From: Bdellovibrionales bacterium | GTDB lineage: Bacteria; Bdellovibrionota; Bdellovibrionia; Bdellovibrionales; UBA1609 | Assembly (NCBI GenBank): GCA_965261545.1 | Contig: CBDHDF010000011.1 | Location: 896,001-960,000, forward strand | Direction of reading: 5' to 3' | Length of the DNA stretch: 64,000 nucleotides | Part shown: positions 12,335 through 60,222 of the stretch, piece by piece | How positions within the stretch are numbered: position 1 is the first letter of the stretch | Layout: each line of letters begins with the position of its first letter | Translations under genes and position numbers: made by a program | The notes under the pieces: model-generated | The model's database searches: none | Told to the model about the DNA's origin: nothing | What the model saw: the letters and a program-made list of their open reading frames with translations, nothing else

Positions 12335-12850
12335 AGACATGCTGAGCCTGATCCTATAGGGGAAGATGGAGGCGTTTCTAAGGGGGGTGTGGCTTCCCCT
12401 AGAAGAACCTGCTGATTGAATTCTGTGGAGGAGACCGAAACTTCCTTGGGCTTTTCGAACTGGGCCACAGGAAGGCTTGGAGGCTCCGCAGAGCAAATTT
12501 CAGGAGAACATGAAGATGAACATGACTCTGCTTCTGAGCACACCGAAAAGGCTGGAGATTTTGGCTCTATACCTCCTGTACGCCCCTTTTTGGCAATGAC
12601 CCTATGGGCTTTCGCATACTCTGAAACCGTAGATCGACCTACATGTAGCCTTTTCGCTATTTTACGAAATGAGTGACCTGCTATAATTAATGTTAATATC
12701 TCTTCTTGTTTTTGTTTATTCAAGACGTTCATCCTTCCCTCCCAGGTTGTTTTCTAGAAGGTATTTTACAATACGCCTTGTCAGATATTAAATTTTAAAT
12801 GGCCTGGTTTGCCCGCCCACAAATGGCCTGGTTTGCCCTCCCCTCCGGGG
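12335..12850 (-). mobile_element. Left-end fragment of an IS21-like element (IS21-D) with an IstA-like N-terminal HTH
   Basis: ORF MNVLNKQKQEEILTL...SFRKIAKRLHVGRSTVSEY; tandem AAATGGCCTGGTTTGCCC repeats at about 12797-12838; a second remnant lies at 29880-30030. Confidence 0.7.
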
Positions 12851-18376: not shown

Positions 18377-19986
18377 AACAAAAAATGGGCCTTTCTGGAC
18401 AGAAACTATCTATTATCGTCACAGAATCCGATCCTCTGATTCAACTGGCCAACCACGTCGATTGGAGCTATCTGTCGTGTCTTGTCATGCCCGACTTAAA
18501 AGCCACGACTGCAAAGGGTTTTTGGTGGCTAGGAAGAAAGCTCTTTTTAAGAGTTCATCTAGCCGTGCTGCTGCTTCAGGTTCTATTCAAACTCACGGAT
18601 CGAGGGGTGGAGCAACGGATAAAAGAGACGGCCAGTTATCAGCTTTTTTGTGGTCTAAATATCCTCAAAAAATGGTGTTGTCCCGATCATACGAAAATAG
18701 AAAAATTTCGCAATCGACTGACGGAAGAGACTCACAAAGAAATAGGAGATTATATTCTTCGCTTGGCTCAATCCCTGGGGTTTGCAGACGCCTCTCATTT
18801 GGATGTCGATTCGACCGTTCAGGAAGCCAATATGGCTTATCCCTCCGATGCTGTTAGGCGCCAATTAAAATTGGCCATTTTTAGAAGCCGTCGCCAATGA
18901 AAAACGGCCAGTTGATGATGTACTGATTTAGTTATTCTTCGTTCAGAGTTTAGTCAAGTGTCTTTATTTTGCTCATCATTTAACTCGGACTATGCCACAA
19001 GATTCTGAGGAATGATTTTCTGCCCACCACTTTTGGCATGACCCCAAATGCATCCTTCAGCCCTATGGCAGAGGTAAATGGAGTATTTTTCAGGATTCCT
19101 TGGCGCAGCTAATGTCTAAAGCTCCGCGAGAGTGACGAGCAAATAGTACGGTAAAAGCCAGTTATCCATAAATTTATCCATGGCGACACTGCGGCTGTGA
19201 CCCCGATGTCTAGCAACGCAGTGCTGCTGTGGATAAATTTTGTGGATAACTGGCGAGTTCCTTCCCCAAAAGTGGGGATCTCTAATGAACTTCTTTGGTT
19301 GAACTTTCCTCTTTGCTCTGTTTAGACTTGGCTTTTGCCGATTCGGTTCTCCAACTTTCTTTTCCTTCAATGTTGAGGGTTTCACAGTTGTGAATAATTC
19401 GATCAACAGCAGCAGCGGTGGTAATAGGGTTAAGAAACACCTTATCCCATTCAGAGTAAGTTAAGTTTGTAGTGATCATGAGACTTTTCCTTTCATATCG
19501 CTGAGATATGAATTGAAAGAAAAGATCAGCACCCTCTGTGCAGGAAGCTGTATAGCCAAGTTCATCACAAGCAATAAGATCAAAACGGTCTAATTTCTTA
19601 AAAAGAGCATTCAATGAGAGTTCTTTCTTGCTTTCACGCATTGTTTCAATAAGTTCATGAGTCAATGCCGTTTCCTTAAGCCACCACACCCCTCTGCCTC
19701 TGCGTTAAGCTATTTCTTTTAAAAGAACTCCCAGCCCTTTTGATAGACCTTTCATAGCTTCTTTTGAAGTGCCTCCTCTTCTCCATTGAAATCTTCATCA
19801 GCAACTTTATCTGCTTCCTAAATTTCTGATAGAGCCCCGCAACAAAAAGGGGGATGCTATCCATTATGAAATCAAGAATCAGTTTAAAGTTAGGTTTTTT
19901 GTAGTCATTTTTTACCAACTGATTCACACTGTCTTCATCCTCATTTATGCTCATTTGAATCTTTGTATAATTGAAGTGTACAATTG

Positions 19987-20333
19987 GTTACGGTAGGAAT
20001 GCGTGTTGCCACGCACCCCCCGCACAGATCCGGACGTGCTCGTTAAAGCATCCGGCTCCTACTTCAGGTGGTACCGCATAGCGAACCTATCTGTTGGCCA
20101 CGGGTGGCGTATGGATATACGAGGCCAGAATAGACGAATCATTCTATCCAACCTCTTCCACGAGAATCTCCGTCCACGCTGTGAGCGTCGTCGGATGGCT
20201 TTCATCCAAGCACTCCTGATTGCGCAAATAAATTTTCGTAGGTACACCGTACTTCCTGGAACCGCAAAATAATTGAGCCAGCCTTTGATGACCAAACCCA
20301 ACCACTTTGCACATTCCGCTAGGTCCCTCGTGT
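19987..20333 (-). mobile_element. 3' fragment of the RT-encoding group II intron, attached to a 10-bp IS21-C-type terminus (19977-19986)
   Basis: Reverse complement of the last 347 nt of the intron at 45881-47790, preceded by TGTACAATTG. Confidence 0.9.
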
Positions 20334-21737: not shown

Positions 21738-22520
21738 GGAAACGGCATTGGTTCATGAGTGGTGACCCATAAACATCGATAGCCTTGTTCACAGAGTGAA
21801 CGAACTAGGGACATGGCCAAATGACTTTTCCCCATTCCAAAGCTTCCGTAAAACACAACATTACAGGCTTTTCTGACCCACTCTCCCTCTGCCATCCAAT
21901 TAATTTGCTGAGCTGTCACTCCCGTTCTTTTCTGGAAGTTATAAGTTTGGAGTGATTTAAGTTGAGGAAGCTTGGCCCCCTTAAGCAATCTTTTCACTCT
22001 CTGGGAATGCTTGTCAGCAAGCTCATTTTGAACGAGTATACCTAAATACTGTTCATACGTCTTTTTTGTTTTTTCGGCAACTCTAGCCGTTGCAACATAT
22101 TCATCCGCCATCGCTGGAAGTCGGAGTTTTTTAAGAGAACCTATAAGTTCTTCGTGATTCATTAAGAACCTCCTATGTTTGGAACAAGACTGTCATATTG
22201 AGACAATCTAGGTTGAAGTGGTTTTTGTTGGTCATTCAAATTAATTTTGGTGGGATTGCCTAAGAGCAAATCTTTTATGGATTTAAAGTCGAAAATCTCA
22301 CGACTTTCTAATTGAAGCTCCATGGCTGTAGATAAGTCCTGCCAACTCACATGCTGAATCAAGTTGATAACTCTTGCAAAATTTCACCTAGTTTGACCCA
22401 CCCAATTTCACCTGGTTTGACCCACCCAATTTCACGAAGTTTGACCCACTGAATTTCACCAAACATTGACCCACTTAGATCTTCATAGATATTCTTTCTG
22501 CGCTACGCATTAACGAGGAG

Positions 22521-24044
22521 GTGTCTATGGGCAAACAAGGTAAGAAAAAAGGAGCAAGAATGATCAACAATATTAAGAAATACATAGAGCTTGGACTCAG
22601 TTCGAGACAAATAGCTCGAGCTATGGGTGTTAGTCGGAACACTGTGAAGAAGTATGTGAAGGATAGTCCCGGAGGCCTAACAGCCGCTCAAAGGGGTCGC
22701 ATGGGCCCCTACCAAGCCCCATGGTCATCCAAGGTGAATTGGACAGATGTTCGCCTCAAGCAAAGCCTAGGGACTCAATTGGCTCATTACTGGGAGCGAC
22801 ATATTCAGTCCGAGATTGACGGTGTGAGTTATCTTTCTTTTTGGAGAGAGTTTCGTCGGAGGCACCCAAGTATAAAGCTTGATATGCACCAGACATTCAC
22901 CCCTGGTGAACGGAGTGAGTTTGACTATAAGGGAAAAGACTCTTGTTTTGGCTATACAGATGCCAAGACTGGGGAGTTCATCCCATGTCGATTATTTGGA
23001 ATGATACTTCCATCGAGTCAGTTTTTCTTTCCATGCGCCACATTAACAGAGCAGCGGGAAGATGTTTTTTCCTCCATAGCTTCTGGTTTTGAGTTTTTTG
23101 GTGGTGTGACCGGAACCATTGCTTTTGATAACGCAAAGGTTCAAGTGACAAGAGCTGATACTTATGACCCCGATATTAACTCTGAGTTTCACCTCTTGTG
23201 TGATCACTACAATGTGGCTCCTTTGGCGATGAGGCCATCTCGCCCCAAAGACAAGAGTCTTATCGAAAATACCCTTGGAGTCTTTTGGCGCTGGTCTTGG
23301 CCCCAGATAAGAGAGCGGCAAATGTATTCTCTAGCAGACATCAACGCTGAGTTGAAGCATTTGGCAGCTATTTTCAATGATCGTATTCAAAAAAAGTATG
23401 GGTTGAGTCGTCGACAGAAGTTTGAATCTTTTGAGAAGTCAAAATTGAATCCTCTTCCTGAAAGACGCTATGAGAGTGGATTCTGGAAGCATTCCAAGGT
23501 TCATCCGGATTGTCACATTCAATATAACTACAATTTTTACTCTGTTCCTTATAAGCATCGCGGCAAGAAGTTAGATATTCGTATTAGCCAACAATGCTTG
23601 GAGGTTTATTCAGAATTAGAGCGGGTGGCGATACATCACATCCCCCAGGGCAGTCGAGGGCGCTACTTTACGACAAAATCTCATCTCCCTGAGTCCCACC
23701 GGGCCATTTTAGAGCAAACGCCACAAAATGTACTTAAAGAGGCATCAAGCCTTGGAGAAAGCATTCACAAAGTTGCCGAGCGGCTTATCAAAGAGCCTCG
23801 CCATCCGCTTATGTATCTTCGTCGTGTTCAGGGGATACTCAATCTAAGAAAACGGTATTCAACAGCTTCTTTGGAGCAGGCTTGCTCATTTTTTGTAGAT
23901 GCAGCTTTAAGTGACATTAGGGTTCGTGGAGTTGAGAAAGTCATTTCAGCAAAAAGTCATCGAAAAGAGGAGCCAAGAGTCTGCCGTCAACCTAATGAAA
24001 ATTTAAGAGGTTCAGAGCACTGGGAGAATGCTTGCCGCCACTAA
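22521..24044 (+). CDS. istA: IS21-family transposase IstA
   Basis: HTH SSRQIARAMGVSRNTVKKY, PGERSEFDY, FDNAK, PKDKSLIE, YSVPY. Confidence 0.93.
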   Translation: MSMGKQGKKKGARMINNIKKYIELGLSSRQIARAMGVSRNTVKKYVKDSPGGLTAAQRGRMGPYQAPWSSKVNWTDVRLKQSLGTQLAHYWERHIQSEIDGVSYLSFWREFRRRHPSIKLDMHQTFTPGERSEFDYKGKDSCFGYTDAKTGEFIPCRLFGMILPSSQFFFPCATLTEQREDVFSSIASGFEFFGGVTGTIAFDNAKVQVTRADTYDPDINSEFHLLCDHYNVAPLAMRPSRPKDKSLIENTLGVFWRWSWPQIRERQMYSLADINAELKHLAAIFNDRIQKKYGLSRRQKFESFEKSKLNPLPERRYESGFWKHSKVHPDCHIQYNYNFYSVPYKHRGKKLDIRISQQCLEVYSELERVAIHHIPQGSRGRYFTTKSHLPESHRAILEQTPQNVLKEASSLGESIHKVAERLIKEPRHPLMYLRRVQGILNLRKRYSTASLEQACSFFVDAALSDIRVRGVEKVISAKSHRKEEPRVCRQPNENLRGSEHWENACRH

Positions 24045-24125: not shown

Positions 24126-24854
24126 ATGATTAAACAAACAGAAAATTTATTAGAGATATTAAAAATGAGGGGAGTTTTAGCAACCTTGAGCCAGAGGCTC
24201 AAAGAAGCTGAGGAGCAGGATCTTGGTTACGAGGACTTTCTAAATGTCATCTTTGAGGACGAAAAAATCCATCGTGAAAATCAGAAGGTCTCAAGACTTA
24301 TCAAAAGAGCAGCTTTGCAGCAAAAAGCAAGCCTTGAGGCCTTTGAAACCAAATCCAACCGAGGAGTCGATCGAAGAGTTTTGAGTGATCTAGCCCTTAT
24401 GAGATTTGCTCAAAGAGGTCAAAATATAATTATCTCTGGCCCAACGGGTGTTGGAAAGTCATATTTGGCTTGTGCCATAGGTAATCACGCCTGTCGCCAA
24501 GGTTTTTCCACTCAGTTCTTCAGAATGAATACTCTTGTTGAAAAATTCAACTTAGAAAGAGCCCAGGGGACATATCTAAACTTCCTTAAAAGGCTAAAAT
24601 CAGTCTCGATACTTGTGTTGGATGATTTTGGTATCAAGCCCCTTACCTCTAACCAATATCAAGACCTTTACGATGTGATTGATGAACGAGGCCCTGACCT
24701 GAGCCTCATTCTTACAACCCAACTTCCAATAAAAAATTGGAGTGAAGTCATTGAGGATCCCATCGTTTGTGAAGCTATTATGGATCGCATAACCTCTCAA
24801 GCTATCAAAATAGCCATGTCTGGAAGCTCATTTAGGCAGAAAAAGACGATTTAA
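24126..24854 (+). CDS. istB: IS21-family helper ATPase IstB
   Basis: GPTGVGKS, LVLDDFG, TTQLP, AIMDR. Confidence 0.94.
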   Translation: MIKQTENLLEILKMRGVLATLSQRLKEAEEQDLGYEDFLNVIFEDEKIHRENQKVSRLIKRAALQQKASLEAFETKSNRGVDRRVLSDLALMRFAQRGQNIIISGPTGVGKSYLACAIGNHACRQGFSTQFFRMNTLVEKFNLERAQGTYLNFLKRLKSVSILVLDDFGIKPLTSNQYQDLYDVIDERGPDLSLILTTQLPIKNWSEVIEDPIVCEAIMDRITSQAIKIAMSGSSFRQKKTI

Positions 24855-26126
24855 GGAGAATCCATGCAAAGGCAGACCTTGGAAGACACCATCGGGAGAC
24901 ACTCCATCGGAACTATTGAATCATGTACCCGCCAGTTATCCACAAAATTTACCCACGGCAGCGCTGCGTTGATAGACATCGGGGTCACAGACGCAGCGTC
25001 ACCATGGATAAATTTGTGGATAACTGGCTCGCTATTCTCTGCCATTTTGAGCAATGGATTCAACATCCCCATTGAAAAACCCTCCATTGAAACCTCAGAA
25101 ATGGGGAGGGTCGAGATTCTCAATGACAAAGTGGCCAATTTTAGTTGGCATCTAACATTCTGGCAAATAAGCCTTAACCCACCGTTGGGACATCGTGACA
25201 TTGAGGGTGTAAAAGTTACTGAGTCAGCAGAAAAAAGAAGGTTTAAATTGACAAAGTTTGAGCCACCGTGAAATTCAAAATTGGACCTCAAATTGACTGA
25301 CTGAGGGGTGGGTCAAACTTCGTGAAATTCAGTGGGTCAAACTCGTGAAATTCAGCACTCTTAAATATTCATGCTCGGCACGGCTTGAATCTTGTTGCTT
25401 GAGGTATTGATAAAAATTTTCAAACACATTTGTTGGAAAAAGAATGGATCGGTGAGCCCATCTTACCATGGCTTGCGGCTTACGAACTAAAGAGGGAAGG
25501 ATATGTTCAAGAAGAAGACTATGCTCCCCATCAGGTTTTCTTTGATGGCGAGCGACAATTTCTTGCTTCCCTCCTGCACGATAGATCGTGACATGATAGG
25601 GACCCTGTACGGTTTTACAGGGAGATTGGATCACCTCATCAGGTATGGAATATGTGGTTTTACCTATTCTCAAAGTCCCATAACCATTACTTTGACAAAT
25701 ATTCACCTTACAGAGAATATCTTCATCTCGTGGAGGCAAAGGCTTAAGAACTTTGGCCTCCTCCTCAAAGCGAGATTTGGTGGAGTCACTCTGATGCTGA
25801 TCCATATAAGACTCTAAAAACTGATTCAAATGATCCCAGTCTTTAAAAACAATTCCTTTGTTTCTAACAATATTTTTTATCCGAGAACTGAAGGTTCGAA
25901 TATCACGCTCCACATCTCCCTTGTCAGAGCCCTTCCCTGCGCGGCAGGGAAGAACCTTAAATCCATAGTATTGGATGGCTCGATCAAAAGATTGGGTGTA
26001 AATTCGCTGATTTCCTTTAAGAACTTTCTTCACACAGGGAGATAAATTATCAATACGGATGTTCGCACTCATCCCACCTATCTTTTCAAAAAAAGCATGC
26101 ACCCCATCGATGAAACACTCATAGAC

Positions 26127-41213: not shown

Positions 41214-41465
41214 TACGTATGTATCTATCTCATGCTTATGACGTTTTATCGGGTGTGACAAAGAATCTTTGCTATTCTCCCGCTCTGAACGAAATCGCCA
41301 ATGCTATTCAAATGATAGGTAGTTTTGAGAGTAATTGTACAATTGCGCGTATTGCCCGCACTGGTTGCACCCATTACCCTCACTTTCCCTATTTCAATGC
41401 GTCATTGATGATTTTCCTTCCCATTTCTGGGGAAAATTTTAGTTAATTTGTAATCCTATTTCTTC

Positions 41466-42218
41466 CTATTTTAGGGAAAAGTCCTGGTCAAGTTTTGTTC
41501 CCTGGATTTTTCGATAACTCTCTCCTTTAAGTAAAATTTTTATGGCGGTATGCTTCAAACGGTCGATGATAGTATCTGCCAGCACCTCATCATCAATAAT
41601 TTCTGACCAATGCGTTATTGGCAGTTGAGTGGTAATAACGGTGGACCTATCGGAACGAAACTTTAAAATATCGCAGAAGTCTGTGGATTCACTTTGGGAG
41701 AACTTCCTTAATCCAAAGTCATCAAAAATTAACACTTGGGGGCGGCCCAGACGACGCAAGTAGTTCAAATACCTTCCTGAGTGCCTTTCCAGGGCCAAGG
41801 TTTCTAGAAATATGTTGATGTCTATAAACAGTGTGGAGATTCTGGATTGACAACACTGGTGTCCCAGGCTCTGGGCCAAGAAGGTTTTACCCACCCCCGT
41901 TGGCCCTTCGACAATGATAGACCTTTGCTCCTTAACCCATGATAAAGTTTGAAGCCTATCCACCTCTCTTTTACTAATAGACCTTTTGGCATGGTGGTCA
42001 AATGCCTCACCTCTGACCTTGTGAGGCAGCTTTGAGGTCTTGAGAAGTCTTTGGCTGAATTGGATTTTCCGAGCCTCCACTTCTGCAAATAACAGCTCGT
42101 TCAATAGATCCAATGCTTGAGTCTTGTGGCTTGTGTTATCCAGCGCCACTTCAAGGCTGTCTAACATTCCATAGAGCTTCAACTCATGCATGTGGTTTTT
42201 GATTTGTACTTCATCCAT
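41466..42218 (-). CDS. istB: IS21-family helper ATPase IstB
   Basis: GPTGVGKT, LIFDDFG, TTQLP, TIIDRL. Confidence 0.94.
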   Translation of the reverse strand: MDEVQIKNHMHELKLYGMLDSLEVALDNTSHKTQALDLLNELLFAEVEARKIQFSQRLLKTSKLPHKVRGEAFDHHAKRSISKREVDRLQTLSWVKEQRSIIVEGPTGVGKTFLAQSLGHQCCQSRISTLFIDINIFLETLALERHSGRYLNYLRRLGRPQVLIFDDFGLRKFSQSESTDFCDILKFRSDRSTVITTQLPITHWSEIIDDEVLADTIIDRLKHTAIKILLKGESYRKIQGTKLDQDFSLK

Positions 42219-43779
42219 CTGGCACCTCCTTGGGGCTTTGGTTATTTGGATTTTCGTTATGTCGCAAATAAGGGTTGCCTTGTTTACGATCTATTTTCTC
42301 GTTCACCTTTTTTATTTTTTGCCCTTTATAGAAATGGAGTTGTTGCTGAAAATATCTAACCCTCCTTTTCTCCCACTGCTTGCAGTCCTCAAGGGCTTTG
42401 ATAATGAGAGGAAGGGACTTTTCCTTGCCCTCTTTCTGGATTTCTTTGTGACAGGAGCTTACAAAGCCCATAGCTCTTCTGAGATTTTCAATGGTCCCAC
42501 CCTGAAAAAGCTCCTCAATGAAGTTTTCAAGCTCTTTACAAATCATACTTGCTTGAATAAGAATGTTCTGGGGAGTGGCCTCCTTGTAGGCGCGACTGGG
42601 CTCCGGGAGGTGTTCGTTTTTGGTGATGTACTCTCCGAGTTTACCTTTGGTCCTCTTGTGGCGAGCGAGGAGCTGTTTTTGAAAGTAAATCTCCACACTC
42701 TCCACTCCAATTTTTACATCTACATACTCCCCTCGGTGCTGAAACGGAGCCGAGTAGAAGTTGGATTCAACGCTCACATGACAGTCTTGGTGGAGTTTTT
42801 TCTTCTCCCAACGTCCCCACCGGTAGGGAAAAGAAGGCAAGGGTTTTAAAGTTTTTACCTCTCGTTGAAATTTTTCATTGCGAGAGACCTTAAATCTTGT
42901 GTGAGGGCGAGCATTTATCTTCTCGCACACCTCCCTTAAAGCCTTATTAATTTGATCCAGACTGGTGAAGGTCTCTCGTCTGTACATAAACCTGAGGGCC
43001 CTTGTAACGAGCTTCACGGCATTCTCAGTAAGGCTTTTATCCTGGGGACGACGAACTCGAGCGGGAACAGCCACCGTGTCATAGTGTTCCAAAAGCTCTT
43101 GGTAGGATTTATTCAACTCTGGATCATACAAATGGGGTGTGTTCACTCCAGTCTTTAAATTATCAGGAACAACCACTCTCGGAACCCCACCGTAATATTC
43201 AAACATCAGAACGTGAGCGTGAAGAAAATCTTCACTAGATTCGCTCAAAGAGCCATAAGCAAAAATACGCTGAGAGAAACATAGATTTGAGCAAAATATA
43301 TGGGCCTTATGAATATTAAGGTCTTCATCGATCCACTCTGGCTGAAATCCTGCGTAATCAACCTCAACTTGGTGGCCTGGCTGAAAATCACGCAAGGTAA
43401 TAATCCTTTTGCCAGCTTTTGGAAATTGCTTATGAAACTCCCTCGTAAACTGGGGGTAGCTAATGACCTTCAGAAATTTTTCCTCCCAAACGTCACTTAA
43501 ACAATGCCTATCCTCAATCTCCTTCTCAATAATCTTCCAATCTATACCGTAAGACCAAGGGGGAATTTCTCTTTGGGTCTTCCAATCCTTGGGGTCTGTT
43601 AAAAGACCACGTCTTATCTTTCTAAGAGTCTTGGTGCAGCATTTCATGCGGCGACTGATTTCTCGGTCGGGAATATTTGCCTTTATTAATGATTTTATTT
43701 TTGTGTAACGCTCATGATCCATCTTTGTTCTCATTTCGACCTCCTTGGTTAAAGATTGGAGGTCTTTATAGAACATCAA
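42211..43779 (-). CDS. istA: IS21-family transposase IstA (start probably at 43734)
   Basis: PGHQVEVDYAG, VPDNLKTGV, PQDKSLTE, FYSAP. Confidence 0.93.
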   Translation of the reverse strand: MMFYKDLQSLTKEVEMRTKMDHERYTKIKSLIKANIPDREISRRMKCCTKTLRKIRRGLLTDPKDWKTQREIPPWSYGIDWKIIEKEIEDRHCLSDVWEEKFLKVISYPQFTREFHKQFPKAGKRIITLRDFQPGHQVEVDYAGFQPEWIDEDLNIHKAHIFCSNLCFSQRIFAYGSLSESSEDFLHAHVLMFEYYGGVPRVVVPDNLKTGVNTPHLYDPELNKSYQELLEHYDTVAVPARVRRPQDKSLTENAVKLVTRALRFMYRRETFTSLDQINKALREVCEKINARPHTRFKVSRNEKFQREVKTLKPLPSFPYRWGRWEKKKLHQDCHVSVESNFYSAPFQHRGEYVDVKIGVESVEIYFQKQLLARHKRTKGKLGEYITKNEHLPEPSRAYKEATPQNILIQASMICKELENFIEELFQGGTIENLRRAMGFVSSCHKEIQKEGKEKSLPLIIKALEDCKQWEKRRVRYFQQQLHFYKGQKIKKVNEKIDRKQGNPYLRHNENPNNQSPKEVPDG

Positions 43780-43832
43780 TGACGCTATGCTAAGGGGAAT
43801 CAGTCATGCCAATCAGTGCGGGCAATGCCATG

Positions 43833-45742
43833 GTTCGCCGGGCGAACTGAGATAAGATAGGGGGTTAGAGTCCCCCGAGAGGAAGGTCAACCGACCACTT
43901 CTCTCCCCAAGCCGTGCGCTGTCGGCCGTGAGGCCGAAGCGATGTATCGGTAGGGGTGTGTGTGGGCCAAATAATTGAGCGTCGAAAATGCCGAACTCTG
44001 GAGTGCGGAGGCTGTCATGGTAGCCGAACGCAACATACCCACCAGCGCTATGGTGAGTTGGTGGGTGACTCCACGGCGTCGTAGAAACTGGCACATACAT
44101 GAATCTTATCCCGGGACCTCGGGAGGTCTTTATTTAACCCCGTCATGTGCGACGGGCGACATGGGAAAGGAGGTAACCGTAACCCATGAACGAAATAAAG
44201 AAATCGGATCCACTCATAGTAGCGATGAAGAGGACGAACAAAGGGCCTACAAGCCCAGCGGAGTCCTTGGAGCGAAGGGGTGGAACTGAAGGGAACTCAA
44301 TCCGTCAAAGCATCTGCCGAACACAGAGTTGGGAAAAGGTGTCACAGGCGACGGAGCGAGTCCGTATAGCAGCAAAGAGAAAGGATGGTAAGCTCACTTG
44401 CTTGCTTCACCATGTATCTGTGGAAGCCCTCCACTTGGCTTACCTCTATTTGAATAGGGGAGCCAGTGCGGGAGTGGACCATTTAACATGGAAGGAGTAT
44501 GGCGAGAACCTCGTGCAAAACCTGTTCGATTTACATCGTCGGGTCCACACGGGTGCTTACAAAGGGCAACCTGTCTTGCGGGTAGAAATACCCAAGTCAG
44601 ACGGGGGCACAAGACCCTTGGGTGTCCTGGCCTTGGAGGACAAGATTGTCCAGAAGGCCGTTGTAGACAGCATCCTCTCTCCCATCTACGAGGAACATTT
44701 CCTCGGTTATAGCTACGGATTCCGTCCAGGGCGTGGAGCGCATAATGCGTTGGATGCTCTGGCTTACGGAATAGAGCGTAGAAAGATCAGCTACATATTG
44801 GATGCGGATATAAAATCCTACTTCGATAGCGTGGATAGAAAGACTCTAATTCGCTTTCTAAAACACCTCATCGGAGATGAGAGACTCATTCGTCTCTTTG
44901 AAAAGTGGCTCAAGTGCGGAGTGCTATCTCAAGGCGTCTTAGAAGACACAGGGAGAGGGACCGTTCAAGGTTCAAATATTTCCCCTATCTTCGCCAACAT
45001 ATATTTACATTATGTGTTGGATTTATGGATGCAGAAATGGCGCAAGGACCATGCCACAGGGGACATGATATTTGTTCGCTACGCCGATGACTTTGTCGTA
45101 GGCTTTCAATACAAGGGGGAAGCTGAACGCTTCCTCAATGATCTGAAGCGCAGGCTTAAGGAGTTTTCTCTAGAAATACATCCGGGGAAAACTCGCCTCA
45201 TAGAGTTCGGTCGATTTGCAAATGCAAATTGCCGCCGACGAGGTCTTGGTCACTCCGAGACTTTTGATTTCTTAGGATTCACTCACTTTTGTGTGCGCAC
45301 GAGGAAAGGAGGCTTTAGGATAGGGCGTAAACCCATATCCAAGAGAGTCTGCCGGACCTTACAGCACCTGAAGCTGAGTCTGAGAAAACGAGTCTACACG
45401 AGGGACCTAGCGGAATGTGCAAAGTGGTTGGGTTTGGTCATCAAAGGCTGGCTCAATTATTTTGCGGTTCCAGGAAGTACGGTGTACCTACGAAAATTTA
45501 TTTGCGCAATCAGGAGTGCTTGGATGAAAGCCATCCGACGACGCTCACAGCGTGGACGGAGATTCTCGTGGAAGAGGTTGGATAGAATGATTCGTCTATT
45601 CTGGCCTCGTATATCCATACGCCACCCGTGGCCAACAGATAGGTTCGCTATGCGGTACCACCTGAAGTAGGAGCCGGATGCTTTAACGAGCACGTCCGGA
45701 TCTGTGCGGGGGGTGCGTGGCAACACGCATTCCTACCGTAAC
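43833..45742 (+). mobile_element. Group II intron copy 1 (1910 nt, class E-like)
   Basis: 5' GTTCG, 3' CCTACCGTAAC; DV GAGCCGGATGCTTTAACGAGCACGTCCGGATC; removing it restores one 23-bp repeat unit. Confidence 0.93.
44186..45670 (+). CDS. ltrA: Group II intron reverse transcriptase/maturase, no endonuclease domain
   Basis: AGVD, IPKSDGGTRPLG, SYGFRPGR, DADIKSYFD, GTVQG, RYADDF, FDFLGF, GWLNYF. Confidence 0.96.
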   Translation: MNEIKKSDPLIVAMKRTNKGPTSPAESLERRGGTEGNSIRQSICRTQSWEKVSQATERVRIAAKRKDGKLTCLLHHVSVEALHLAYLYLNRGASAGVDHLTWKEYGENLVQNLFDLHRRVHTGAYKGQPVLRVEIPKSDGGTRPLGVLALEDKIVQKAVVDSILSPIYEEHFLGYSYGFRPGRGAHNALDALAYGIERRKISYILDADIKSYFDSVDRKTLIRFLKHLIGDERLIRLFEKWLKCGVLSQGVLEDTGRGTVQGSNISPIFANIYLHYVLDLWMQKWRKDHATGDMIFVRYADDFVVGFQYKGEAERFLNDLKRRLKEFSLEIHPGKTRLIEFGRFANANCRRRGLGHSETFDFLGFTHFCVRTRKGGFRIGRKPISKRVCRTLQHLKLSLRKRVYTRDLAECAKWLGLVIKGWLNYFAVPGSTVYLRKFICAIRSAWMKAIRRRSQRGRRFSWKRLDRMIRLFWPRISIRHPWPTDRFAMRYHLK

Positions 45743-45880
45743 CAACTGGTGCGGGCAATGCCATGCAACTGGTGCGGGCAATGCCATGCAACTGGTGAGG
45801 GTAATGCCATGCAACTGGTGAGGGTAATGCCATGCAACTGGTGAGGGTAATGTCATGCAATCGGTGAGGGCAATGCCATG
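45743..45880. repeat. 138-bp tandem array (6 x 23 bp) of IS21-C terminal repeats
   Basis: Unit GTGMGGGYAATGCCATGCAACTG; inverted, degenerate copies at the other IS end (41336-41388). Confidence 0.93.
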
Positions 45881-47790
45881 GTTCGCCGGGCGAACTGAGA
45901 TAAGATAGGGGGTTAGAGTCCCCCGAGAGGAAGGTCAACCGACCACTTCTCTCCCCAAGCCGTGCGCTGTCGGCCGTGAGGCCGAAGCGATGTATCGGTA
46001 GGGGTGTGTGTGGGCCAAATAATTGAGCGTCGAAAATGCCGAACTCTGGAGTGCGGAGGCTGTCATGGTAGCCGAACGCAACATACCCACCAGCGCTATG
46101 GTGAGTTGGTGGGTGACTCCACGGCGTCGTAGAAACTGGCACATACATGAATCTTATCCCGGGACCTCGGGAGGTCTTTATTTAACCCCGTCATGTGCGA
46201 CGGGCGACATGGGAAAGGAGGTAACCGTAACCCATGAACGAAATAAAGAAATCGGATCCACTCATAGTAGCGATGAAGAGGACGAACAAAGGGCCTACAA
46301 GCCCAGCGGAGTCCTTGGAGCGAAGGGGTGGAACTGAAGGGAACTCAATCCGTCAAAGCATCTGCCGAACACAGAGTTGGGAAAAGGTGTCACAGGCGAC
46401 GGAGCGAGTCCGTATAGCAGCAAAGAGAAAGGATGGTAAGCTCACTTGCTTGCTTCACCATGTATCTGTGGAAGCCCTCCACTTGGCTTACCTCTATTTG
46501 AATAGGGGAGCCAGTGCGGGAGTGGACCATTTAACATGGAAGGAGTATGGCGAGAACCTCGTGCAAAACCTGTTCGATTTACATCGTCGGGTCCACACGG
46601 GTGCTTACAAAGGGCAACCTGTCTTGCGGGTAGAAATACCCAAGTCAGACGGGGGCACAAGACCCTTGGGTGTCCTGGCCTTGGAGGACAAGATTGTCCA
46701 GAAGGCCGTTGTAGACAGCATCCTCTCTCCCATCTACGAGGAACATTTCCTCGGTTATAGCTACGGATTCCGTCCAGGGCGTGGAGCGCATAATGCGTTG
46801 GATGCTCTGGCTTACGGAATAGAGCGTAGAAAGATCAGCTACATATTGGATGCGGATATAAAATCCTACTTCGATAGCGTGGATAGAAAGACTCTAATTC
46901 GCTTTCTAAAACACCTCATCGGAGATGAGAGACTCATTCGTCTCTTTGAAAAGTGGCTCAAGTGCGGAGTGCTATCTCAAGGCGTCTTAGAAGACACAGG
47001 GAGAGGGACCGTTCAAGGTTCAAATATTTCCCCTATCTTCGCCAACATATATTTACATTATGTGTTGGATTTATGGATGCAGAAATGGCGCAAGGACCAT
47101 GCCACAGGGGACATGATATTTGTTCGCTACGCCGATGACTTTGTCGTAGGCTTTCAATACAAGGGGGAAGCTGAACGCTTCCTCAATGATCTGAAGCGCA
47201 GGCTTAAGGAGTTTTCTCTAGAAATACATCCGGGGAAAACTCGCCTCATAGAGTTCGGTCGATTTGCAAATGCAAATTGCCGCCGACGAGGTCTTGGTCA
47301 CTCCGAGACTTTTGATTTCTTAGGATTCACTCACTTTTGTGTGCGCACGAGGAAAGGAGGCTTTAGGATAGGGCGTAAACCCATATCCAAGAGAGTCTGC
47401 CGGACCTTACAGCACCTGAAGCTGAGTCTGAGAAAACGAGTCTACACGAGGGACCTAGCGGAATGTGCAAAGTGGTTGGGTTTGGTCATCAAAGGCTGGC
47501 TCAATTATTTTGCGGTTCCAGGAAGTACGGTGTACCTACGAAAATTTATTTGCGCAATCAGGAGTGCTTGGATGAAAGCCATCCGACGACGCTCACAGCG
47601 TGGACGGAGATTCTCGTGGAAGAGGTTGGATAGAATGATTCGTCTATTCTGGCCTCGTATATCCATACGCCACCCGTGGCCAACAGATAGGTTCGCTATG
47701 CGGTACCACCTGAAGTAGGAGCCGGATGCTTTAACGAGCACGTCCGGATCTGTGCGGGGGGTGCGTGGCAACACGCATTCCTACCGTAAC
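45881..47790 (+). mobile_element. Group II intron copy 2 (1910 nt)
   Basis: Apparently identical to copy 1; sits between GCCATG and CAATTTTACA, the terminal unit of the IS. Confidence 0.93.
46234..47718 (+). CDS. ltrA: Group II intron reverse transcriptase/maturase
   Basis: Same protein as 44186-45670. Confidence 0.96.
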   Translation: MNEIKKSDPLIVAMKRTNKGPTSPAESLERRGGTEGNSIRQSICRTQSWEKVSQATERVRIAAKRKDGKLTCLLHHVSVEALHLAYLYLNRGASAGVDHLTWKEYGENLVQNLFDLHRRVHTGAYKGQPVLRVEIPKSDGGTRPLGVLALEDKIVQKAVVDSILSPIYEEHFLGYSYGFRPGRGAHNALDALAYGIERRKISYILDADIKSYFDSVDRKTLIRFLKHLIGDERLIRLFEKWLKCGVLSQGVLEDTGRGTVQGSNISPIFANIYLHYVLDLWMQKWRKDHATGDMIFVRYADDFVVGFQYKGEAERFLNDLKRRLKEFSLEIHPGKTRLIEFGRFANANCRRRGLGHSETFDFLGFTHFCVRTRKGGFRIGRKPISKRVCRTLQHLKLSLRKRVYTRDLAECAKWLGLVIKGWLNYFAVPGSTVYLRKFICAIRSAWMKAIRRRSQRGRRFSWKRLDRMIRLFWPRISIRHPWPTDRFAMRYHLK

Positions 47791-48781
47791 CAATTTTACA
47801 AGTAATAGCATAACTCTCTACGATAGGCTTTATTTATCTACAGAGATTATTAAGGCCCATGCTCAAGCCAGTAACTTCTTTATTGCGCGTTGTAAGCGAG
47901 GCTCTACTTTTATCCCCATTGTAAATTTATTTAATGGCCCAGGTTGGTATTCACGAATGGTTATTGAGGGGGTGGTCATTCATCTCTATAAGTATAAAAA
48001 CCCAAAGACTGGGGAGTTCTCTGTTTTGGCCACTAATCTTCCGCATGGCTCCTTGGACAAGAAGGATATGGTTGCTCTTTACTCTCGTCGTTGGGAAATA
48101 GAAACGACATTTCGTGATTTTACATCGACAATGAAAATGGAGCAGTGGCACTCAACAAGCCTTAATGGAATATTGCAAGAGCTGTATTCTTATTTTTGGC
48201 TCTTCAATTATACAAAGATTCAAATGAGCATAAATGAGGATGAAGACAGTGTGAATCAGTTGGTAAAAAATGACTACAAAAAACCTAACTTTAAACTGAT
48301 TCTTGATTTCATAATGGATAGCATCCCTCTTTTTGTTGCGGGGCTCTATCAGAAATTTAGGAAGCAGATAAAGTTGCTGATGAAGATTTCAATGGAGAAG
48401 AGGAGGCACTTCAAAAGAAGCTATGAAAGGTCTATCAAAAGGGCTGGGAGTTCTTTTAAAAGAAATAGCTTAACGCAGAGGCAGAGGGGTGTGGTGGCTT
48501 AAGGAAACGGCATTGAGCCATGGCCCCAGAGCTTCTCACTTTTACAGCCGGGATTTTGGCACTTACATGGCCTCTTCCAATTGTAATTCTTACCTTCTTT
48601 TACAAGGTCATCCGTTGATACAAAAGTAGCTAAAATCATAACACCTCCTGATGCAGAGTATTAAACTCATGGGGAGGTTATGACAAGACTTAGTCAAGGG
48701 AATGTAATAATTCTTTAGGGATGGTCAAAGAAAAATAAAAAATAAAGGCGAATTCTAGTCAGAATAAAGTATCGTATAACA

Positions 48782-59493: not shown

Positions 59494-60222
59494 ATTGGGT
59501 AGAAGGGCCGGTTACCCGACCCAACCCCCGTTCCCACCACATCGTGCCCAATTAAGGCAATAGGCAGACGATAACTCCACTCACTCAACTATATCAATAT
59601 CGATCTATTCCCACAGTCTTCATCCCATTCAACTCATGGAAATACCCAGTGAGTGACCCTTGTTCACCTAGGACATCCGCCCATGTGACATCTTGGGATC
59701 CTCACCAGATAGATGAACTACCCTCTTCAGTTTCGTTTCCGTAATGTTGTTGGACTTTGTTAATCCCATTTACGTTTCTCTTCAAAGGTTAGAGTTACCT
59801 AAGCCCCTTCCCTCTACGGTCGTTACTCGCTTCATCGGTACTATGGACTCGCTGACTCCCTCATGTTCATTTCACCATTCTTGCTGTTTAGGCTTGTTTG
59901 GCAATACCCCATCCTAGGGGAACATGAGGGTCTCCCACGCTCACAAATACACCTTCAAAAAAGTGCCATGCTCTCAGACCCCGGCGGCGCCACCCTTGTT
60001 CTCCTCAGTTACAAAAGGGTGATGTTGTCTTCCACTTCTTGAACAGTGTCGACCACCACGGTATAAAATCTTTCGAGGCTCAATCACTTCAACCTTACGG
60101 CCCTTCTTTCTTGCTATCTACGCTTAACTCATATTGTTATGAGCCCAAGACTCGCTGCGGAGTGCGCTGAGGCACTTCTCCGTGTGGACTTTCACCACCG
60201 ATGTATTTACCTCGTGGCGCAC
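59494..60222 (-). mobile_element. ORF-less group II intron (about 729 nt)
   Basis: 5' GTGCGCCACGAG, 3' CTACCCAAT; DV/DVI hairpins; EBS1 loop TCAAGA pairs with exon TTTTGA; RT0 remnant FHELNGMKTVGID. Confidence 0.85.

Follow-up and report, generated by a model that had tools for sequence, protein, structure and literature searches.

A compact group II intron in the left-end repeats of an IS21-family element and evidence for its site-specific homing

The stretch of DNA described here (the window) comprises 64,000 nucleotides of the genome of a Bdellovibrionales bacterium (contig CBDHDF010000011.1, positions 896,001 to 960,000) and includes an insertion sequence (IS) of the IS21 family, named IS21-C, whose left end holds two copies of a small group II intron. 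The left end of this element is an array of tandem 23-bp repeat units, and the intron occupies the same register within the units both in the window and elsewhere in the genome. The favoured explanation, given a probability of about 85%, is that this compact intron retrohomes site-specifically into the 23-bp left-end repeats of one IS21-family element. Positions cited without a contig label are those of the window.

The IS21-C copy with both introns extends from 41336 to 47800 on the minus strand and would measure about 2.65 kb without them. Read along the plus strand, the occupied part of its left end begins with the innermost 23-bp unit (CAATCAGTGCGGGCAATGCCATG; 43810-43832), which forms the 5' exon of intron copy 1 (43833-45742; 1910 nt). 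Six tandem units follow as empty target sites (45743-45880), and then, after the outermost unit, intron copy 2 (45881-47790), which is identical to copy 1 and is separated from the end of the element by just the 10-bp left tip (CAATTTTACA; 47791-47800), its 3' exon. The array between the introns is 138 bp long, with a period of 23, 6.0 copies and 93% matches (Tandem Repeats Finder, TRF). Both introns start with GTTCG and end with GTAAC, are preceded by GCCATG and followed by CAA, and are antisense to the transposase gene istA (42211-43779, minus strand). Comparison of occupied units (...GCCATG[GTTCG...GTAAC]CAACTGG...) with uninterrupted ones (GCCATGCAACTGG) fixes the boundaries to the base, and because filled and uninterrupted units can be set side by side in this way, the insertion is seen to be exact and free of target duplication, as retrohoming would give. 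The initial annotation, made from the sequence of the window, had reported two identical 1910-nt introns in this register, the outer one 10 bp from the IS tip, antisense to istA and with a non-canonical GTTCG start, and all of this is borne out. Its count of five intact units between the introns holds if an intron is taken to lie inside a unit; six whole units are obtained if the introns are placed at unit boundaries.

The census of intron copies and target repeats covered the whole genome (11 contigs, 4.32 Mb). The word that spans the 5' junction (ATGGTTCGCC) has 13 matches, nine of which are real intron ends, eight in an IS21-C unit or tip and one elsewhere; the word for the 3' end (CCTACCGTAAC) also has 13 matches, with 12 real intron ends, ten in a unit or tip and two elsewhere. 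The remaining matches carry no intron sequence and are chance matches. These junctions sustain the specialisation on a multicopy IS21-C end motif that had been proposed at the outset, as most copies do not lie in unrelated targets. At every one of the 12 3' junctions the first base of the 3' exon is C. Thirteen left ends of IS21-C were parsed, seven of them intron-free (with 10, 8, 8, 8, 6, 6 and about 5 units) and six intron-bearing. The 5-10 units per left end agree with the earlier suggestion that one IS offers many landing sites, put then at about seven. Five ISs have the intron behind unit 1, one has it behind unit 5, and two (among them an IS with just two units) have it behind the last unit, so that at least three registers are in use. 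In three further remnants, the 3' end of the intron is joined to an IS21-C tip. The remnant within the window (19976-20333, minus strand) consists of intron nucleotides 1563-1910 (19986-20333) and a variant tip (CAATTGTACA; 19976-19985); its 5' side is truncated by another IS and it occupies a different insertion site, as had been described for a third, partial copy. A duplicate of this remnant is found at G000:C10:1104688-1105035.

Empty sites are far more numerous than filled ones. The genome holds 83 unit-like 23-mers (one spurious). The intron comes next after 8 of them, another unit after 64 and the tip after 10. Thus, 74 of 82 units are empty and read GCCATGCAA..., and 8 are filled and read GCCATG[intron]CAA.... 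Occupancy of array units (8/82) contrasts with that of GCCATGC sites outside the arrays (0/467; Fisher p = 1.8e-7, a value that overstates the contrast, since the intron copies are not all independent events). The right ends of IS21-C provide an internal comparison: the intron is present in none of 16, and their units retain GGGCAAT but read ACGCG or GGGTG in place of CCATG. A single full copy is ectopic and lies in a DUF2145 gene, between ...GGCAGCACCTATG and C, where the flank resembles the target (CTATG before C).

Over their 1910 nt, three full copies of the intron show no difference from one another and a fourth shows 2, and this near-identity points to recent activity. Nucleotide 279 of the intron distinguishes two alleles. 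Allele C is found in both copies of the 41336-47800 element, in the ectopic copy and in one interrupted unit-1 copy; allele T is found in a last-unit copy on contig C10, in two interrupted unit-1 copies and in the unit-5 copy. Both alleles are therefore represented at unit 1 and at the last unit, and the alleles, the three registers and the ectopic site together suggest at least four or five separate insertions, barring gene conversion. Favoured units begin with CAATC(A/G)GTG, and internal units read CAACTGGTG. In introns without an endonuclease a replication-strand bias would be expected, but the sign of the GC skew (50-kb windows) is irregular along every large contig, so no replication strand could be assigned. 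In contigs of three sequencing runs (X1, X2 and X4), the last 32 nt of the intron (to 45742) are joined to TAGCATGTGCTGCG..., a sequence absent from the assembled genome; this junction may mark a further site that is filled in some members of the population, or belong to a related intron of another organism in the sample.

Ribozyme and protein identify the insertions as group II introns with an intron-encoded protein (IEP) in domain IV. The Rfam model RF02005 matches each intron, at 43867-44088 with 155.8 bits over its full length (1-225 of 225; cut-off 49). For domains 5 and 6 (D5 and D6), the match to the model RF00029 covers 45669-45742 and reaches 37.6 bits (E 2.9e-5), short of the cut-off of 40; an AGC triad, a CUAC bulge and the bulged A are visible in the D5/D6 alignment. 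Class IIC introns, by comparison, have CGC in D5. The IEP gene of copy 1 (44186-45670, plus strand) encodes 494 aa with reverse transcriptase (RT) and maturase regions, and that of copy 2 lies at 46234-47718 (plus strand). The protein matches TIGR04416, the group II RT/maturase equivalog, with 324.9 bits (cut-off 300), RVT_1 with 119.7 bits and GIIM with 21.3 bits, under its cut-off of 23; no endonuclease domain was detected in the domain search. Only 425 nt are left for the ribozyme portion. Upstream of the intron, no sigma-70-like promoter was found on the plus strand (2 sites in 43300-48000, versus 5.4 expected from shuffles).

Recognition of the target appears to depend primarily on exon-binding site 1 (EBS1), the intron sequence that pairs with the intron-binding site 1 (IBS1) of the 5' exon. 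The hairpin GGCUGUCAUGGUAGCC (44010-44025), to which the initial annotation drew attention, is present as described, and the Rfam alignment places it as a terminal stem-loop inside the large stem of domain 1 (D1). Its loop, GUCAUGGU (44014-44021, plus strand), is the terminal loop of the model hairpin and presents CAUGGU, which pairs with the exon GCCAUG through a helix that includes one G-U; the variant GUCAUG also pairs, as does the ectopic CCUAUG, again through one G-U. In four other intron lineages, the corresponding hairpin loop has changed in step with the 5' exon. For instance, UCAUUG pairs with CAAUGA at a metagenomic locus (L030), UCAAGA with UUUUGA in a second intron of the window (59969-60192), and GAGUA with UACUU or GCUC in a family with three copies in the same genome (family B). 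At another locus, L004, no convincing pairing between the loop and the 5' exon was found. By its position in the Rfam model and by this covariation, the loop at 44014-44021 is EBS1, and the earlier assignment of CATGG(T) is upheld. Of the other two contacts that were to be confirmed by folding D1, EBS2 has not been established, the candidate being UGCC (43989-43992, plus strand), a weak 4-bp match to GGCA at positions -12 to -9 that lies within a variable internal loop of D1. AUUGAGC was also considered as an EBS2 guide and was rejected, being invariant across lineages.

These observations suggest the following scheme for the insertion of the intron. The intron RNA would recognise the DNA strand antisense to istA, with the EBS1 loop CAUGGU pairing with GCCATG (or GTCATG) at the 3' edge of a unit, and would reverse-splice before the C that opens the next unit or the 10-bp tip. 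The C at +1 presumably represents a contact between EBS3 and IBS3. Synthesis of complementary DNA (cDNA) would be primed by a host primer, as in other introns without an endonuclease. The 5-10 units of each IS would offer as many sites, and two introns could share one array. Further determinants are required; candidates are GGCA at -12 to -9 and contacts of the protein with the distal exon.

Several points weigh against site-specific homing or against parts of this scheme. The candidate EBS2 match is off by 1 nt at the ectopic site, and EBS3 was not located in the intron. The 5' end, GUUCG, departs from the canonical GUGYG (sister lineages in the same genome begin with GUGCG), although the 3' end, AC, fits AY. 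This deviation appears to be compensated, because U3 pairs with an A in a 5'-terminal hairpin (GUUCGC/GCGAAC, folded with DNA parameters), and by itself it does not outweigh the other group II features. Occupancy is also uneven, with 5/13 first units filled and last units filled in two ISs and three remnants, versus 1-2 of about 57 internal units; this bias may reflect a true preference or a copying effect. Some copies may stem from IS21 transposition, recombination or gene conversion rather than from homing. Splicing and present-day mobility are predicted, with indirect support from identical copies and from pairs of filled and empty sites, and the two-intron arrangement of the 41336-47800 element comes from the assembly.

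The second intron, or the array between the introns, could have been created by mis-joined reads across the 1.9-kb repeats, in which case an IS would hold one intron at most. The two copies are indeed 100% identical and 138 bp apart. In a check of four sequencing runs of one sample, the short-read contigs break at every repeat, and none among the matches listed bridges the last unit and intron 2 without mismatches. However, a second locus, at G000:C10:1010149-1015931, also carries two introns, here one unit apart, with differing alleles and with an element nested in one of them, and a duplication error would not yield such an arrangement. The three remnants, moreover, independently place the intron 10 bp from the tip, and the assembly of the genome into 11 contigs despite dozens of multi-kb repeats suggests that long reads were used. 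An assembly artefact is accordingly regarded as very unlikely.

A different account of the same copies holds that the intron entered IS21-C by chance once or twice and has since been spread only by IS21 transposition, unequal crossing-over and recombination, with no specialisation for a target. It would explain why five ISs carry the intron at unit 1, why a 7-unit array occurs in three intron-bearing ISs and in no intron-free copy, why intron-bearing ISs keep intact 6-8-bp target duplications at different loci, and why array length varies from 2 to 10 units. It is nevertheless highly improbable in view of the three or more registers in use, the presence of both nucleotide-279 alleles at unit 1 and at the last unit, the ectopic copy at a look-alike site, the exact complementarity of EBS1 to the unit, and the lack of hits among the 16 right ends, which are without IBS1. 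In addition, an IS with a tip-proximal intron should not transpose, as the in vitro behaviour of IS5376 suggests (accessible portion of PMC10122671), yet this position is filled at four IS insertion sites, a distribution more readily explained by repeated homing after transposition than by an IS that transposes with an intron in it.

Hardly tenable is the notion that the intron recognises a DNA stem-loop of the repeats, in the style of class IIC introns, and not their sequence. In its favour, the solved RTs most similar to the IEP are IIC enzymes (7uim 3.9e-43; IIB 6me0 2.2e-31; IIA LtrA 1.6e-28), the ribozyme is very small and the nearest metagenomic relatives (L030, L025 and L024) lie just behind hairpins. 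Against it, D5 carries AGC, and the folds of the 5' exons at the two sites used most often (-2.7 and -1.5 kcal/mol) do not surpass those of shuffled sequences (z = +0.75 and +1.51), which makes structural targeting unlikely. In addition, EBS1 pairs over 5-6 nt, whereas class C introns are described as being without part of EBS1 in the accessible text of PMC3753933.

Site-specific homing into the end of an IS is not in itself new. The initial annotation suggested that this type of target had not been described; however, as excerpts of PMC4615759 and PMC5894124 relate, all copies of the intron RmInt2 in Sinorhizobium meliloti GR4 reside within the inverted repeats of ISRm17, with two sites per IS. 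ISRm17 is an element of the ISNCY family (PMC10194956). Like the intron described here, RmInt2 is without an endonuclease, has the non-coding terminal repeat of an IS as its natural target and uses more than one site per IS (PMC4615759 and PMC5894124, as excerpted). In the same excerpts, it recognises targets by EBS/IBS pairing, tolerates a short (4-bp) EBS2 pairing and enters ectopic look-alike sites. The two systems differ in their use of the element: RmInt2 uses both ends of ISRm17, with one site each on opposite strands, according to these excerpts, whereas the present intron uses the left end only, on one strand relative to the IS, with 5-10 tandem sites and double occupancy. The homing of RmInt2 has, in the accessible accounts, been proven by assay, and homing here is deduced from sequence. 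RmInt2 belongs to class D, and the likeness claimed is one of habit, not of membership in the RmInt lineage. A second comparison is provided by RmInt1, which, in the available part of PMC5894124, is specialised on one multicopy host IS, ISRm2011-2, and stops the spread of that IS by its insertion. RmInt1 lies within the transposase gene in sense orientation (same source); the present intron lies in a non-coding end, antisense to istA, and for this reason it could not be spliced from the transposase transcript. Homing into IS end repeats being already published for RmInt2 and ISRm17, what is new is the tandem array of an IS21 element, the use of one end and the double occupancy. A full-text literature search for group II introns together with IS21 yielded no description of an IS21 end-repeat target.

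The candidate classes for the intron are C, E and F. Class C introns, which target terminators and attC sites, and the compact classes E and F resemble it in having a small ribozyme and no endonuclease domain, and the accessible text of PMC3753933 puts the ribozyme of a IIC intron at 412 nt and those of classes E and F at 450-700 nt. It differs from class C in that its target does not fold and in the 5-6 nt paired by EBS1. In the limited literature that cites Rfam, the class represented by RF02005 is not stated, and a literature search for IIC introns with an unusual target gave nothing usable. Relatives identified by RT similarity are distant, amounting to 2 loci with at most 35% identity in GTDB species genomes, a best identity of 44% in 60 related genomes, 22 loci with at most 52% identity in metagenomes of the Joint Genome Institute (JGI), and at most 52% identity in plasmids, including Sinorhizobium records. 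Six relative loci have a full RF02005 match, and the IS21 end repeat was found at the 5' flank of none of them, one being cut at a contig start. The five with readable flanks lie elsewhere, several of them after stem-loops and one after the 3' end of another intron. In this last case (L023:1-135, metagenome; RT 49% identical), the relative begins directly after domain VI of the other intron, so that the two form a head-to-tail pair with no exon between them; because of this position, its 5' exon is not readable. A relative on a Klebsiella plasmid is not in an integron.

The host element has the organisation of the IS21 family. The istA gene encodes 522 aa from a TTG, with an ATG further in, and its product matches NF033546 (IS21 family transposase) with 185.3 bits (cut-off 160) and contains Mu-transpos_C_2 and rve domains. 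The gene istB for the helper ATPase follows it (41466-42218, minus strand; 250 aa; PF01695 187.4 bits; NF038214 204.3 bits, cut-off 200), and the two genes overlap at 42211-42218. The right end (41336-41389, minus strand) comprises a tip and two repeat units (CGCGTATTGCCCGCACTGGTTG and CACCCATTACCCTCACTTTCCC). The tips, TGTACAATTG (41336-41345) and the left-tip 10-mer, which also terminates 10 intron-free left ends, have the form TGT...ACA. The 6-bp direct repeat AGTAAT flanks the element on both sides (41330-41335 and 47801-47806), and the element disrupts the gene of an IS4-like DDE transposase (PF01609) in which it sits. Target duplications of 6-8 bp border eight of nine complete IS21-C copies compared, one of them with a mismatch; the sole copy without a duplication is C11:364959/367626. 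The repeat units recur with a period of 23, 2 of them in the right end and 5-10 in the left, and the right-end units share the core GTG(C/A)GGG(C/T)AAT with the left units but are without CCATG. A promoter-like match at 47793-47820 (minus strand), which is a match to consensus only, has its -10 hexamer, TAAAAT, within the left tip and points inward to istA. It recalls the junction promoter of IS21.

The istA-istB pair, the 23-bp direct repeats with terminal CA and the target duplication place IS21-C in the IS21 family, whose ends carry at least two direct repeats spaced at 23 bp, as stated in the accessible portion of PMC10122671. In 60 related genomes, the IstA of IS21-C had no match at E <= 1e-60 except one at 33% identity. 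The window contains further tandem repeats with a period of 23-24 and 1.9-3.4 copies, at 12797-12842, 22380-22475 and 25308-25355, which adjoin other pairs of open reading frames (ORFs), such as 22521-24044 and 24126-24854. They resemble the termini of additional IS21-type elements and comprise far fewer units than the left end of IS21-C.

The initial annotation had proposed that the intron either hitch-hikes on the IS or immobilises it, and the consequences for the IS would differ with the position of the intron within the array. In vitro, integration by the IstA of IS5376 requires two complete repeats that adjoin the cleaved end (PMC10122671, in the part available). An intron 10 bp from the tip parts the terminal CA from all repeats, and because IstA needs two of them adjoining, such an end is predicted to be inactive. 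Insertion after unit 1 spares at least six repeats, but would separate the end from istA by 1.9-3.9 kb of antisense intron. One could imagine an arms race, in which a tip-proximal insertion kills the end, inner insertions are tolerated, and the long left array (5-10 units, versus 2 at the right end and 2-3.4 in the other IS21-type elements of the window) is the answer of the IS, providing redundant IstA-binding sites that are predicted to keep at least two repeats near the tip. Alternatively, array length could be a by-product of intron-mediated recombination, and in either case a single transposon family would be held in check by a natural brake, the intron, that is programmed by sequence; this proposal, as a whole, is unlikely.

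The system is a clean natural case of a selfish element that lives on a second one, and its internal controls are unusually complete: in the genome, 74 sites are empty, 8 are filled, and in 16 right ends nothing but the EBS1 target is missing. If the consequences predicted for the IS hold, its mobility would be decided by where in the array the intron lies, and the locus could serve as a simple test bed for the number of end repeats that IstA needs in vivo; it would also reveal ways in which transposons are held back or exploited by group II introns. Given the precedent of RmInt2 and ISRm17, the gain lies in detail and not in principle.

The intron is itself a target of other mobile elements. 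A 1938-bp element interrupts six of its copies after nucleotide 718, with a 2-bp AC overlap, at G000:C11:547566-549503, C10:177068-179005, C10:1013276-1015213, C2:454382-456319, C6:252654-254591 and C2:417090-418375, all of them outside the window. It has imperfect inverted ends (TACTCCCCGGACACAAT and ATTGTGTCCGAGGAGTA) and a single ORF of 542 aa that encodes a large serine recombinase with Resolvase, Recombinase and Zn_ribbon_recom domains. Whether it could mark the transposition of IS21 together with the intron was considered, and this use was rejected, as it is a site-specific serine-recombinase element and occurs on both nucleotide-279 alleles. Among the matches listed in a full-text literature search, no paper dealt with this element. 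A recombinase subfamily with 97% identity interrupts other group II RT genes at 5/5 loci checked (G000:C10:793054-794989, C11:871158-873093, C11:367628-368185, C7:146916-151828 and C10:10006-10145), at a point that matches IEP residue ~267 in RT motif 4 (between ...PQGS and ...SPLLSN). These insertions in intron RT genes indicate a nesting order in which an IS4-like element contains IS21-C, IS21-C contains the group II intron, and the intron contains the recombinase element.

The second group II intron of the window (59969-60192, minus strand) matches RF02005 with 125.8 bits. It starts with GTGCG, the exon before it ends in ...AAATTTTGA, and its EBS1 loop, UCAAGA, agrees with that exon. Across the genome, RF02005 has 19 matches at E <= 0.001, 17 of them over the cut-off, and these include at least three more lineages.

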